A DNA stretch of 64,000 nucleotides, taken from sequence record MH560358; one strand, written 5' to 3'. Both the position numbers and the translations under genes were made by a program. The notes beneath the pieces are model-generated. The model did not search any database, was not told where the DNA came from, and saw nothing but the letters and a program-made list of their open reading frames with translations. Each line of letters opens with the position of its first letter. Positions within the stretch are counted from its first letter, which is position 1. Positions 45,989 through 58,194 of the stretch are shown here, piece after piece. Origin of the DNA: Escherichia virus KFS-EC.

Positions 45989-46555
45989 TTATTTAAATTT
46001 TTCGAGAGATTTCAACCACAGGCGGCCTGGTAGGTACTCTCCGGCAAACATGAAATTGTCATCTGGATAAGAACGCAGCATATTCAAAATAAACTTCCGG
46101 CACTCTTCGTAATCTTTACGTTTAAGATAAATCACATTCTCGCCAGTACCGATCACACCTTTGCTGTATCCATGCTCTTTACGCACAGACCATTGTACAG
46201 TATCCTTTTTAACCCGAATCACAACAGGTTCCCAATACCCAGCGCATCCGGCTACACCACACGAACAGGTGAGGAAGTATTGACCTTTTGCTTTGTTTTC
46301 CTCCCACCCGATATTAACCGGATGCCATTCGTGAAACAAGGCTAAAGCATCGTGTGTCTCTTCGATCTGTTTATTGTCAATTCTTACCGTAACCATCCAT
46401 ACAGGGATCTTATTTGTTGGTTCATCATCATAACATGAATCATCATAACATGAATCATCATCAATATGTTCTAATGTCATATCAACATTAATTGATTTTG
46501 CGTGTTCCAGGTGTCGTTGTGCTTTACGTTTACGGTTTAATGATTTCATAGTCAC
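45989..46555 (-). CDS. hypothetical protein (Cys-rich), contains in-frame 15-bp tandem duplication
   Basis: 188-aa ORF; DSCYDDSCYDD encoded by catcataacatgaat x2 at 46426..46455; true start may be internal. Confidence 0.45.
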   Translation of the reverse strand: MTMKSLNRKRKAQRHLEHAKSINVDMTLEHIDDDSCYDDSCYDDEPTNKIPVWMVTVRIDNKQIEETHDALALFHEWHPVNIGWEENKAKGQYFLTCSCGVAGCAGYWEPVVIRVKKDTVQWSVRKEHGYSKGVIGTGENVIYLKRKDYEECRKFILNMLRSYPDDNFMFAGEYLPGRLWLKSLEKFK

Positions 46556-55140: not shown

Positions 55141-55381
55141 AGTTTACCCACTCAACAAGGTCTTTACCTAACTCGAAAGCCCATTCTCGGTCCTGCTTTA
55201 CGTTTTGTAGGTATGGACTTTCCGACACTCGACGAAGTGATCTTGTCGTAACAAGAATGATCCCAGGAATGTTCGGATGTTCCTTTCCATATACAATAGG
55301 ACGCGAGTCACTATCAATACCCTGTAAGAAGGTGTATCCCGAATCACTTAGGATCATATACATTTTCATTTCATCCATCAC
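55040..55381 (-). CDS. hypothetical protein
   Basis: 113-aa ORF. Confidence 0.45.
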   Translation of the reverse strand: MMDEMKMYMILSDSGYTFLQGIDSDSRPIVYGKEHPNIPGIILVTTRSLRRVSESPYLQNVKQDREWAFELGKDLVEWVNCEDENQRNHERKIARISQRRKLDEIKNRILQSM

Positions 55382-55638
55382 AGTTTCCTCAACCAGTTAT
55401 TAAAGCGAGTAAACCATGATGCTTTTCGTGCTTCTTCTTCGGCTTTGCACGCACGCAAACCACTGAAACACCATTCATAATCATCACTGAAACATGATTC
55501 AACAGGAACACCCGCATTTCGTAGTTCTCTGGTCGTTATCATGAATCCTTGACATAATGGGCGACCTTCAACAATGATAGGAAGTTTAACTTTTTCCATG
55601 AAAGTATACCCAGCACGGTCAATAATTTCAATCTTCAT
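55378..55638 (-). CDS. hypothetical small protein, MKIEIID family member 1
   Basis: 86 aa; MKIEIIDRAGYTFMEKVKLPIIVEGR...; paralog of 55657..55854 and 57973..58194. Confidence 0.5.
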   Translation of the reverse strand: MKIEIIDRAGYTFMEKVKLPIIVEGRPLCQGFMITTRELRNAGVPVESCFSDDYEWCFSGLRACKAEEEARKASWFTRFNNWLRKL

Positions 55639-55656
55639 AATATAATCCTCAATTAG

Positions 55657-55854
55657 TTATACCGCCCAGGCTTCATTTGCACGAAAACACCATTCATACT
55701 CAGGAAAATAACCTTTAATTGGTACGCCAGCTTTTTGTAGTTCCTGCGTTTCTACAAGATAATCAAGCCCATATCGACGACCTTCCACGATGATAGGAAG
55801 TTTAACGCCATTCATGAAAGAAAATCCACCATCATCAATAATTTCAATTTTCAT
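55657..55854 (-). CDS. hypothetical small protein, MKIEIID family member 2
   Basis: 65 aa; MKIEIIDDGGFSFMNGVKLPIIVEGR... Confidence 0.5.
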   Translation of the reverse strand: MKIEIIDDGGFSFMNGVKLPIIVEGRRYGLDYLVETQELQKAGVPIKGYFPEYEWCFRANEAWAV

Positions 55855-56099
55855 TTGACATTATCTCCATAGATCTTTCCATCAATATCAATTTCACCAG
55901 CGCGAACATCTAGGATAAGATGTGGTAGGTGTATGCAGTTTTCCCACCCTACGCGCTTCATTTCTTCTACGGTAACGTAAGCCCATCCGTTCGCTGTAAT
56001 AAAGTCTACTTCAACCTTGAGAGGAAAGCAAGACTTTTCTATGTCTTCGAATCCGATAATGTGTTTTGTCGTTGAATATGGAATATATCCGGTGATCAT
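55851..56099 (-). CDS. hypothetical small protein
   Basis: 82-aa ORF. Confidence 0.4.
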   Translation of the reverse strand: MITGYIPYSTTKHIIGFEDIEKSCFPLKVEVDFITANGWAYVTVEEMKRVGWENCIHLPHLILDVRAGEIDIDGKIYGDNVK

Positions 56100-56748: not shown

Positions 56749-57039
56749 TCAAATTGTAGTTTTGCGAAGATGGTCATTACATGCTTTTAATGCATCGGTC
56801 GCGGTGTCATAGCGAGTATTATCATAGCACCAATAACCATCTGTCAACTGATAAATTAATCCATCCTTTTTAGCTTCGATGAAAGACAATTCTTTGAAAG
56901 TTTCTACTTTCTTTGCTGATACTCCACGGTCACGGCGCTTATAGAGTTTAGCCAAAATGCGTTCAGCTTGTTCCTCTTTATCACCAGACAGATCCCAGAT
57001 GATGTTTCGGATATGCTTGATTAATTGTTCAGTGGTCAT
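56749..57039 (-). CDS. hypothetical protein
   Basis: 96-aa ORF downstream of promoter 57069..57096. Confidence 0.45.
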   Translation of the reverse strand: MTTEQLIKHIRNIIWDLSGDKEEQAERILAKLYKRRDRGVSAKKVETFKELSFIEAKKDGLIYQLTDGYWCYDNTRYDTATDALKACNDHLRKTTI

Positions 57040-57068
57040 CTTTGATTCTCCTTAGTTGGTATGCGTGC

Positions 57069-57096
57069 ATTATAGCATTGTGATTATCTTTGTCAA
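57069..57096 (-). promoter_or_regulatory. early sigma70-type promoter
   Basis: minus strand TTGACA-16-TATAAT, followed by leader ...AACTAAGGAGAATC and ATG 57039. Confidence 0.55.
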
Positions 57097-57097
57097 C

Positions 57098-57133
57098 ACC
57101 CAAAAACAAAAAAGGCTACCCCGAAGGATAGCC
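57098..57133 (-). terminator. rho-independent terminator after the gp38-like gene
   Basis: minus strand GGCUAUCC-uucg-GGGUAGCC hairpin followed by UUUUUUGUUUUUG. Confidence 0.55.
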
Positions 57134-57140
57134 CATAAAA

Positions 57141-57917
57141 TTACACGCGAGCACCGTAGATCGTGCCTACTTTATCCCAGCGTGGAGCATTACCAGTAAC
57201 GGCTTTACCAGCAGCACCACCGTTATATTCTGTACCGTTACCCTGAGTATTACATCTTCCTCCAGCAGCACCAACGTTACCGCCCGCACCGCCTGTATAT
57301 GCACTAAGAGACCCCTTACCAACAGATCCTTTACCCGGAGCGGAAATGGAGCCAGCGGTTGCACCAGAACCCATATTAGAGGAAGACCCGGCAGCACCGA
57401 ATGGGCAACCACCGCCGCCACCAAATACTAGTCGACCCCTGTTACCGCCGCCACCGCCGCCACCGCCGCCAGCGATAGCACCGTTATTTGTAATTCGTAG
57501 ACGTGTACCGATAGCGTTATTGATTGCGTTTCCACCAGCAGCGCCAGCAGCGTTACTACCACCATTACCCCCACGTCCGTAGACAGTCACACCGGAGTTA
57601 ATGATCAATGTTACATATTCGTTTGTTAACGAGCTAGGGAAGTCAAGACAAGGAACGCCAGTAGATTGGGAAACAATATTACCTGTGATAGTAATTACTA
57701 CCGGAGTAGATCCTTGTGCTTTCATCCAGTTAATAAGAGTGTCTTTATTGTAAGAGTTACTAGCACCAATGCTATAATGAATCTCTTTAGAGCGTCCGAC
57801 CATTGCCGACATATACGCCGGACGACCTAAGCGTACAGCTTGCATTGCGGCGCTCATCCACCGTTGACCAGTCTCGGACACAGCAGATGATCCTACCCAT
57901 CCAGAAGATATTGCCAT
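57141..57917 (-). CDS. glycine-rich gp38-type tail-fiber adhesin-like protein
   Basis: 258 aa; N-terminus GWVGSSAVSETGQRWMS...GRSKEI resembles the gp37-binding region of T2-type gp38 as recalled; then YGRGGNGGSN..GAAGGN, NNGAIAGGGGGGGGG and further Gly-rich blocks separated by short variable segments; GAGGA RBS. Confidence 0.6.
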   Translation of the reverse strand: MAISSGWVGSSAVSETGQRWMSAAMQAVRLGRPAYMSAMVGRSKEIHYSIGASNSYNKDTLINWMKAQGSTPVVITITGNIVSQSTGVPCLDFPSSLTNEYVTLIINSGVTVYGRGGNGGSNAAGAAGGNAINNAIGTRLRITNNGAIAGGGGGGGGGNRGRLVFGGGGGCPFGAAGSSSNMGSGATAGSISAPGKGSVGKGSLSAYTGGAGGNVGAAGGRCNTQGNGTEYNGGAAGKAVTGNAPRWDKVGTIYGARV

Positions 57918-57972
57918 AAAATTTCCTCATAAGAAAAGCCCCAATTAAGGGGGCATTGATTGATAATATTAC

Positions 57973-58194
57973 TTAGATGACCTCTGCTTCACCATCCAGG
58001 AAGAAAGACCATGTTTTGTTAGGATAGCGAAGCGCCCATGATTCAGCAGTTTTAACACCCGCTTCGAACAATTGACGGCTGGTTACTTTAGCCATACCAT
58101 CTTCGATGGCAACGTTTTCAATAATCATCGGGTACTTAGCGCCACGCATGAAACCGAAACCAGCGGAAGATTTGATAATTTTAACAGTTGCCAT
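57973..58194 (-). CDS. hypothetical small protein, MKIEIID family member 3
   Basis: 73 aa; MATVKIIKSSAGFGFMRGAKYPMIIEN...; followed by hairpin GCCCC..GGGGC + U-run (57933..57960). Confidence 0.45.
   Translation of the reverse strand: MATVKIIKSSAGFGFMRGAKYPMIIENVAIEDGMAKVTSRQLFEAGVKTAESWALRYPNKTWSFFLDGEAEVI

Follow-up and report, generated by a model that had tools for sequence, protein, structure and literature searches.

A nine-nucleotide tandem repeat in the gp38 adhesin gene of Escherichia virus KFS-EC and the glycine tract that it encodes

The gp38 gene and its tandem repeat

The DNA considered here is a 64-kb window, i.e., a stretch of 64,000 nucleotides of Escherichia virus KFS-EC (sequence record MH560358) that was analysed as a whole, and the repeat under study lies in a gene for a receptor-recognizing protein (Table 1). 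The product of this gene matches the Pfam family PF05268 (GP38) over the entire profile (positions 1-218 of 218; 5.1e-71, 239.4 bits with a cut-off of 25) and the Pfam family PF21721 (Gp38_N) likewise (positions 1-40 of 40; 3.9e-18, 65.6 bits, above the curated cut-off). It matches PHROG 2056, 'tail fiber protein; host specificity', at 1.3e-97, and its sequence matches in the PDB are the gp38 proteins of S16 (6F45 chain D, 1.1e-48, 41% identity) and PP01 (9V85, 2.1e-33). An AlphaFold2 model made with 79 homologues has a mean pLDDT of 93.8 and a pTM of 0.86, and the block means for residues 141-160 are 97-98. When this model was used in a Foldseek search, it matched 6f45_D (E = 1.5e-21, TM 0.82/0.85) and 9v85 (TM up to 0.85), and no match besides these two was found below E = 1. 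The modelled protein appears to possess, at the level of the overall fold, the attachment domain, the β-helix and the polyglycine-II sandwich by which the gp38 family is recognized in 6F45. The family is also expected to show an alternation of glycine-rich motifs and hypervariable segments, and this alternation is present in alignments of 120 and 79 homologues, where the glycine columns 114-117, 128-129, 150-156, 167-170 and 210-213 are invariant. A preliminary description of this DNA had called the gene gp38-like and its product a putative receptor-binding protein; the Pfam, PHROG, PDB and Foldseek matches confirm the gp38 gene call in full.

The 1.4-kb locus is 99.6% identical at the nucleotide level to that of Escherichia phage ELT3 and 96.7-98.2% identical to those of RB49, Phi1 and JSE, all of which belong to Krischvirus, and judged by sequence KFS-EC is itself an RB49-like phage of this genus. 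The gene is not located directly downstream of gp37, i.e., the T2/T6 arrangement is absent, and small ORFs flank it on both sides. In this the locus differs from that of S16, where gp38 adjoins gp37. A displaced gp38 is the known arrangement in RB49 and does not define the family (PMC3157838). Recognition of the host via gp38, either OmpA-dependent or through the O-antigen, was reported for RB49, Cognac49 and Whisky49 (PMC9569957). The plus-strand ORF inside the gene was rejected as a gene of its own, as it is probably a shadow produced by the reverse-complement reading of glycine codons within the strongly supported gp38 coding sequence.

A regular-expression search finds a perfect (CCGCCGCCA)x3 tandem array on the plus strand at positions 57445-57471, and Tandem Repeats Finder (TRF) delimits the array at 57444-57471 with a period of 9, 3.1 copies, 100% matches and a score of 56. 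Read on the minus strand, positions 57444-57470 are the glycine codons (GGC GGC GGT)x3, which specify G150-G158. The preliminary description had recognized a perfect 9-bp x 3 repeat here but placed it at 57456-57482, which is 11 nt too far to the right and reaches into non-repeat sequence, and it had ascribed to the repeat most of the polyglycine stretch, whereas in fact all nine glycines (aa 150-158) are encoded by it. The unit was rightly described as in frame, since a length of 9 nt is frame-neutral, though as written the unit is offset by 1 nt from the codon phase. In the whole window no more than five arrays have a TRF score of at least 40, and the 9-nt repeat ranks second best among them. 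The GenBank record of vB_Eco_TB34 (OX001802) already carries a repeat_region, '3.1 copies of ACCGCCGCC', at this place.

Table 1. Features of the gp38 locus of KFS-EC (positions in the window)
Feature	Position	Strand	Evidence
gp38, long-tail-fibre tip adhesin (receptor-recognizing protein), 258 aa; N-terminal attachment domain, β-helix, polyglycine sandwich	57141..57917	-	Pfam, PHROG, PDB, AlphaFold2/Foldseek, nucleotide identity to ELT3/RB49
First glycine-rich motif, aa 114-120 (GRGGNGG), which holds the other Cognac mosaic junction	57558..57578	-	Cognac changes type between CDS nt 342 and 348; conserved alignment columns
9-nt x 3.1 perfect tandem repeat, nine Gly codons, G150-G158; putative helix 3/glycine-rich motif of gp38	57444..57471	-	TRF; regular expression and codon listing; alignment to S16 gp38 151-GGGGGGGG-158; PMC6851490
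Hypervariable segment N159-F165 (NRGRLVF) after the tract; probable match to the distal loop after helix 3, loop B of PP01 gp38	57423..57443	-	Family alignment; PMC12892980; correspondence drawn from the S16 alignment
Second poly-Gly run G166-G170 (GGGGG), probable next PGII helix	57408..57422	-	ORF translation; repeat search
Intrinsic terminator immediately behind the stop codon of gp38	57105..57134	-	Terminator scan: stem 57134..57113, then T-run; a terminator is annotated here in relatives as well
Antisense 78-aa poly-proline ORF	57346..57582	+	ORF list; wholly within the gp38 CDS

The glycine tract in the gp38 fold

In a HMMER alignment, G150-G157 pair without a gap with G151-G158 of the homologous gp38 of Salmonella phage S16 (PDB 6F45 chain D, Dunne et al. 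2018). The S16 stretch 151-GGGGGGGG-158 is helix 3, the central polyglycine type II (PGII) helix of a three-layer 'polyglycine sandwich'; its backbone has a saturated network of hydrogen bonds to the neighbouring helices in a tightly packed lattice, and the distal receptor-binding loops of the protein are its hypervariable segments (PMC6851490). The two proteins also have common flanks: L-R-I-x-N-x-G-x-I-[AC] precedes the run, and the loop behind the run is succeeded by GGGGG-R/C-P-F/L-G. They differ in their hypervariable loops and in that S16 gp38 has eight glycines and a Phe at the ninth position, whereas KFS-EC gp38 has nine. The alignment and the overall TM-score, on which the PGII geometry of residues 150-158 is based, suggest that G150-G158 form the central PGII helix, i.e., helix 3 of the sandwich. 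A PGII helix has three residues per turn, and three glycines thus make up one turn. In PP01 gp38, the segment that comes right after helix 3 is loop B at the fibre tip (PMC12892980). As a separate observation, KFS-EC gp38 has Cys171 in place of the usual Arg.

The same alternation of glycine-rich motifs (GRMs) and hypervariable segments is found in the gp38 proteins of the T2/T6/K3/Ox2 type (Tetart et al. 1998; Trojet et al. 2011, PMC3157838). The GRMs of gp38 are described as strictly conserved, and no viable phage was recovered when T6 gp38 lacked GRM2, GRM3 or GRM4 (Trojet et al. 2011, PMC3157838).

Random DNA would not be expected to contain a perfect repeat of 27 nt. Once nine glycines have to be encoded, the 9-nt periodicity is unusual but short of extreme: a perfect three-codon period appears in ~1.1% of simulated nine-glycine runs with independent draws from the gene's own glycine codon usage. 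It may be argued that the periodicity is a coincidental choice of synonymous codons without any effect on mutation or recombination, since a chance of ~1% under independent draws has to be set against the many windows that were scanned. The perfect form is moreover limited to one sub-lineage, with relatives having 6-nt periodic or aperiodic tracts that encode the same protein, and there is no stable hairpin in the plus strand of the DNA and a weak one (z = -1.9) in the minus strand. Against this stand three observations described below, namely that the tract has far more than its share of the gene's indels and synonymous changes, that the deletions match the local repeat unit, being 9 nt long where a 9-nt period exists, and that a recombination junction lies inside the tract. 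We therefore regard a purely coincidental repeat as unlikely.

The G-rich sense strand or the mRNA could also act as a nucleic-acid structure, with G-quadruplexes or a CGG-type hairpin that regulate gp38 translation or stall replication. ViennaRNA, when G-quadruplex terms are included, places two 2-layer quadruplexes in the mRNA segment (-47.8 vs -26.2 kcal/mol without them), and the sense strand of the DNA folds at -12 kcal/mol. The energies of 2-layer quadruplexes in the ViennaRNA model may be overestimates, however, and all the synonymous variants that were tested (RB49, Cognac and the ECD7-like contig) give the identical quadruplex prediction, which means that the quadruplex is a generic property of GGN runs unrelated to the 9-nt period. 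The -12 kcal/mol hairpin of the minus strand lies within the shuffled range, being matched or beaten by 12 of 200 shuffles, and the third codon positions are not conserved. A role of this kind is extremely improbable. A DNA hairpin was likewise rejected as a promoter of slippage on account of the same shuffles and of the unstructured plus strand.

Variation and recombination at the tract

The locus was compared in 20 GenBank phage records, two IMG/VR contigs (the two loci given by an IMG/VR search for related loci) and seven metagenome/WGS contigs. Among KFS-EC and its 13 closest Krischvirus relatives, neither a change in tract length nor any other gp38 indel was found, and all of them have nine glycine codons. 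The perfect repeat is present in seven of these 14 aligned sequences, since the tract of KFS-EC is identical in ELT3, RB49_OZ, JSE, pEJ01, TB34 and SAP. The tract of PTE-Eco09 is that of KFS-EC moved by one codon, that of Cognac is (GGT GGC)x4.5, and those of RB49 (AY343333), Phi1, Whisky, AV108 and an ECD7-like contig are imperfect, unlike that of KFS-EC. When viral contigs were searched with the gapped DNA pattern ATCGCTGG-N{7,37}-GGNAACAGGGGT, 13 stretches were obtained, six of which are gp38 genes, all with nine glycines, and the rest chance matches; the same pattern gave 120 and 115 stretches in metagenome and genome contigs, respectively, and no glycine-only tract, the variable gap being unspecific.

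While the number of codons is constant, their third positions are not. Eight of the nine third positions in the tract vary, vs 67 of 249 elsewhere in the gene (Fisher p = 0.00027 for 14 related, non-independent sequences), and the excess is also seen relative to the other conserved glycine codons, of which 18 of 46 vary (p = 0.009, the same 14 related sequences). Pairwise diversity in these related, non-independent sequences is 0.33 in the tract vs 0.076 elsewhere. The excess at synonymous sites could have come from a few recombination events instead of slippage. The 9-nt periodicity is a transient, lineage-specific arrangement of the synonymous codons GGC and GGT.

Recombination at the glycine runs is apparent in Cognac. 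At sites diagnostic for the RB49 group versus the GEC-3S/Sf20 group, Cognac gp38 is a mosaic, of Sf20 type at CDS nt 330-342 and 438-447 and of RB49 type elsewhere. One junction falls inside the GRGGNGG motif (Table 1) and the other inside the nine-glycine tract, which equals that of Sf20 through codon 6 and that of RB49 from codon 7 on; the in-tract junction is seen in this one phage, with four informative sites on its 5' side. Two further homologues differ in the loop between the tract and the next glycine run: in the gp38 of Yersinia phage PYps47T (P0270) this loop is duplicated in tandem, with GGGGGYYSPFSQMRLTF present twice, and in P0095 it is deleted. The duplication and the deletion were produced by unequal exchange between the tract and the next glycine run. 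Within the KFS-EC gene these two runs share a perfect 14-nt direct repeat, CCACCGCCGCCACC, at 57409-57422 (second glycine run) and 57451-57464 (main tract). The glycine runs of all alleles are strings rich in GGY codons, the exact stretches that they share are short (14 nt within the KFS-EC gene), and the third positions of the tract are the most variable in the gene.

The GRMs are considered to be a conserved core and were proposed to be recombination hotspots for the swapping of hypervariable segments (Tetart et al. 1998, cited in PMC12032242 and PMC3157838). Mosaic junctions within glycine-rich motifs are what such a recombination-linker model expects, here for one phage with few informative sites, and the junctions, the loop rearrangements and the 14-nt repeat are all consistent with it. 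The parallel with the linkers of T2/T6/K3/Ox2-type gp38 extends to Cognac, where both junctions are in GRMs and one is inside the homologous tract, and to the relatives in which a loop was duplicated or deleted between glycine runs. The papers on GRMs treat the protein and recombination, and a 9-nt tandem repeat or slippage is not discussed in the accessible portion of PMC3157838, where the word 'slippage' has 0 occurrences. A comparable event is known from T4 gp37, in which a small adhesin domain was duplicated and the host range expanded (Tetart et al. 1996, cited in PMC3157838). The likeness with the P0270 duplication lies in a changed number of receptor-binding segments that arises from unequal exchange at short conserved motifs; the differences are that gp37 is another protein, that its motifs are His boxes, and that a whole loop with its motif was duplicated and not a 9-nt unit. 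A contribution of Chi sites was considered and rejected: gp38 contains a single GCTGGTGG (57532-57539, minus strand), and some relatives have one at the start of the tract, but the two sites of the 64 kb are a number within chance, at least two being present in 17 of 100 shuffles.

The wider family was sampled as 350 distinct homologous proteins that cover the region, taken from one database search and two cluster look-ups. Across these proteins the length of the run is constant within each type of hypervariable segment, five singletons apart. In the NRG type, to which the KFS-EC allele belongs, 121 of 122 proteins have nine glycines and one has four. The five exceptions are all shorter and all in frame, P0012 by five glycines, P0026, P0028 and P0118 by three each and P0168 by two, and no longer run, in particular no 12-glycine allele, is found among the 350 proteins. 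At the DNA level, the locus that encodes P0026 (L005) differs from L009 and phage kaaroe by one substitution and a deletion of 9 nt, which is one unit of (GGT GGT GGC)x2.3, and the locus of P0028 (L004) differs from L008 by one substitution and 9 nt within the homologous tract. P0118 is a gp38 split by a frameshift. All five length variants are singletons from short-read metagenome or WGS assemblies. Their tracts are 21-27 nt long, and it is unlikely that they result from assembly collapse because tracts of this length are believed to be below the k-mer size of assemblers. The L005 allele sits in a 162-kb contig of near-genome length, and a run shortened by three glycines may therefore belong to a viable, replicating phage, which would weaken a strict constraint on length. 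In pairs of proteins at least 97% identical, drawn from 336 full-length proteins, ~10 internal indel events were counted, of which four are inside the nine-residue tract and two more abut it. The tract is the main site of small indels in gp38.

Length of the glycine run and its significance

The preliminary description had proposed that slipped-strand mispairing makes the repeat a possible hotspot of length variation in a receptor-binding protein and had pointed to closely related isolates as a source of copy-number variants. Part of this stands: frame-neutral slippage is plausible, and products that it would leave are found in the form of 9-nt deletions and of a tract that is the main indel site. 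These products are rare, however, and are singletons that only contract the run, and the term 'length-variation hotspot' overstates what is seen. In closely related isolates the expected variants do not appear, copy number being the same in KFS-EC, its 13 relatives and almost all proteins of its type; they appear in the family, as the five deletion variants. An absence of copy-number variation is thus nearly the case for the allele class of KFS-EC and is not the case for the family as a whole.

The strongest form of the proposal would be a contingency hotspot, where frequent slippage adds or removes three glycines, i.e., one PGII turn, and thereby moves the receptor-binding loop, so that length variants broaden or shift the host range. 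The comparison with the contingency loci of bacterial surface proteins and with adhesin repeats has some basis, as there is a short in-frame tandem repeat in a surface-recognition protein and as the lengths in nt of the rare gp38 deletions are all divisible by 3 and in three cases amount to exactly a single 9-nt unit. A frame-neutral unit that equals one turn of the helix, three natural alleles shorter by three glycines (two of them differing from their partners by 9 nt and one substitution), the presence of one of these alleles in a contig that suggests a replicating phage, and the standing of the tract as the commonest small-indel site of the gene all fit this proposal. A contingency locus would, however, be expected to differ in copy number between close relatives and to expand as well as contract by whole units; no difference in copy number is observed in the 13 close relatives, and no expansion among the 350 proteins. 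The gp38 tract has three units only, nine glycines are kept also in the half of the close relatives that have no perfect repeat, and the repeat encodes a buried structural core, the centre of the lattice, and not an exposed spacer (PMC6851490). From the GRM deletions in T6 no phage was recovered (PMC3157838). In RB49, the host-range mutants that were reported carry point substitutions at E230/Y231, outside the glycine run (PMC9569957). We conclude that a contingency hotspot is quite unlikely. Likewise quite unlikely is a 'length dial' that operates at a low rate, in which the loss, or rarely the gain, of one PGII turn (three glycines, one 9-nt unit) would retract or extend the distal loop behind helix 3 and generate viable variants with an altered receptor range that persist at low frequency in phage populations, of which L005 would be one example.

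The explanation that we consider very probable is that the repeat is the DNA for the central polyglycine helix of gp38, the length of which is held by selection, and that the tract is in addition a site of recombination and of rare deletions. In T2/RB49-type phages, gp38 is the monomeric adhesin at the end of the long tail fibre, where it attaches to the host receptor. According to this explanation, its central, fully hydrogen-bonded PGII helix would carry the hypervariable receptor-binding loop that follows it to the distal tip. The function would reside in the protein, and the repeat would exist because nine glycines are needed for this helix, the 9-nt period being an arrangement of synonymous codons. 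The near-identical glycine codons may at the same time serve as a tract of microhomology for recombination between gp38 alleles. Replication slippage or misalignment at the tract may occasionally remove two to five codons and would be visible as the small in-frame deletions and the register-shifted synonymous patterns; slippage is the likely, rather than the observed, mechanism of the deletions. Purifying selection for a fit in the lattice would then keep the length of the run, and deletion alleles are presumed to be unfit. Such selection fits the structural role of the helix and the deletion experiments in T6. Because its length is almost always conserved in relatives, the run appears to be held at that length, and the tract is not a contingency locus.

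The glycine run is thus an ordinary feature, the already described helix 3/GRM of gp38, and the site is not a switchable hotspot. What is added is modest: within gp38 it is mainly in the tract that small in-frame deletions arise and synonymous codons are scrambled, the tract can hold a recombination junction, and unequal exchange with the next glycine run duplicates or deletes a receptor-binding loop in relatives. These additions fit the long-standing recombination-linker model and open no new question. Many T-even-like phages that serve in therapy and diagnostics owe their host range to gp38, and the parts of this protein that can change in length matter for engineering. In this respect the result is mainly a negative one, and the tract should be treated as a scaffold and not as a tunable element.

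The gp38 cassette and its surroundings

[quoted passage not shown] In Krischvirus kvi (locus L280), FL15, FL20, MIZ4/5 and others (database matches H49-H60), both gp38 flanks are present but gp38 is missing between them. As noted in PMC12032242, gp38 is close to the holin gene in part of Krischvirus genomes and is found at a different place in FL37/FL38. The sigma-70 promoter past the terminator presumably directs transcription of the next small ORFs. Several small ORFs near gp38 look like mutual paralogues (MKIEIID.GG.FM..VKLPIIVEGR... / MATVKIIKSSAGFGFMRGAKYPMIIENV...). The ORFs on either side of gp38 appear to represent a repeated small-protein family, which carries no Pfam mark in related contigs.

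Features of the gp38 region and other elements of the window
Feature	Coordinates	Strand	Remark
gp38	57141..57917	-	flanks 56749..58194
Hairpin	57954..57938		5' of gp38
Terminator	57134..57113		3' of gp38
Sigma-70 promoter	57069..57096	-	12/12 consensus (TTGACA, 16 nt, TATAAT, with TG); immediately past gp38 terminator
Small ORFs	55378..56099; 57973..58194	-	near gp38
Codon 171 of gp38	57405..57407		TGC
Chi octamer GCTGGTGG	57532..57539	-	canonical; within another gp38 glycine-rich motif (AAGAAGG)
Counterparts of Cognac patches	57588..57576; 57480..57453
14-nt direct repeat	57409-57422; 57451-57464		perfect
15-nt x 2.5 tandem repeat	46424..46461		perfect; TRF score 76

Alleles of gp38 and their annotation

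Position 171 of gp38, which belongs to the motif GGGGG-x-PFG, is Cys in the window; Arg is conserved here in at least 90% of homologues, and Cys is also found in a few other alleles (P0005, P0014, P0058 and P0179). In two metagenome Tequatrovirus contigs (L006/L007), the gp38 call consists of two ORFs that overlap, a 58-aa Gp38_N and a 210-aa GP38, which points to a frameshift; the glycine tract of the split gene is additionally shorter by three residues. Either a defective allele or an error in sequencing may account for the split gene.

The GenBank annotation of gp38 is inconsistent among relatives. In PTE-Eco09 (L012), the gene is annotated as three 'hypothetical proteins' despite an intact full ORF, and the annotated CDS of ELT3 (L010) and JEP8 (L023) is shorter, starting at an internal ATG.

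Repeats, Chi octamers and rearrangements of gp38

The strongest array of the window is the 15-nt tandem repeat (ATCATCATAACATGA). Chi octamers are not enriched in the window, their count of two being within chance; in some relatives, a second Chi octamer is found at the beginning of the nine-Gly tract (GCT GGT GGC).

The gp38 of phage Cognac (L021) is a mosaic, an RB49-type gene with Sf20/GEC-3S-type patches at CDS nt 330-342 and 438-465. Both resolved junctions lie within glycine-rich motifs, one of them within the nine-Gly tract. In P0270, the homologue from Yersinia phage PYps47T (QNJ50602.1), a loop and a Gly run are duplicated in tandem (GGGGGYYSPFSQMRLTF x2), and the homologue P0095 carries a matching deletion; the window contains a direct repeat at the sites equivalent to this rearrangement. 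The duplication and the matching deletion imply that neighbouring Gly-codon runs have undergone unequal exchange.
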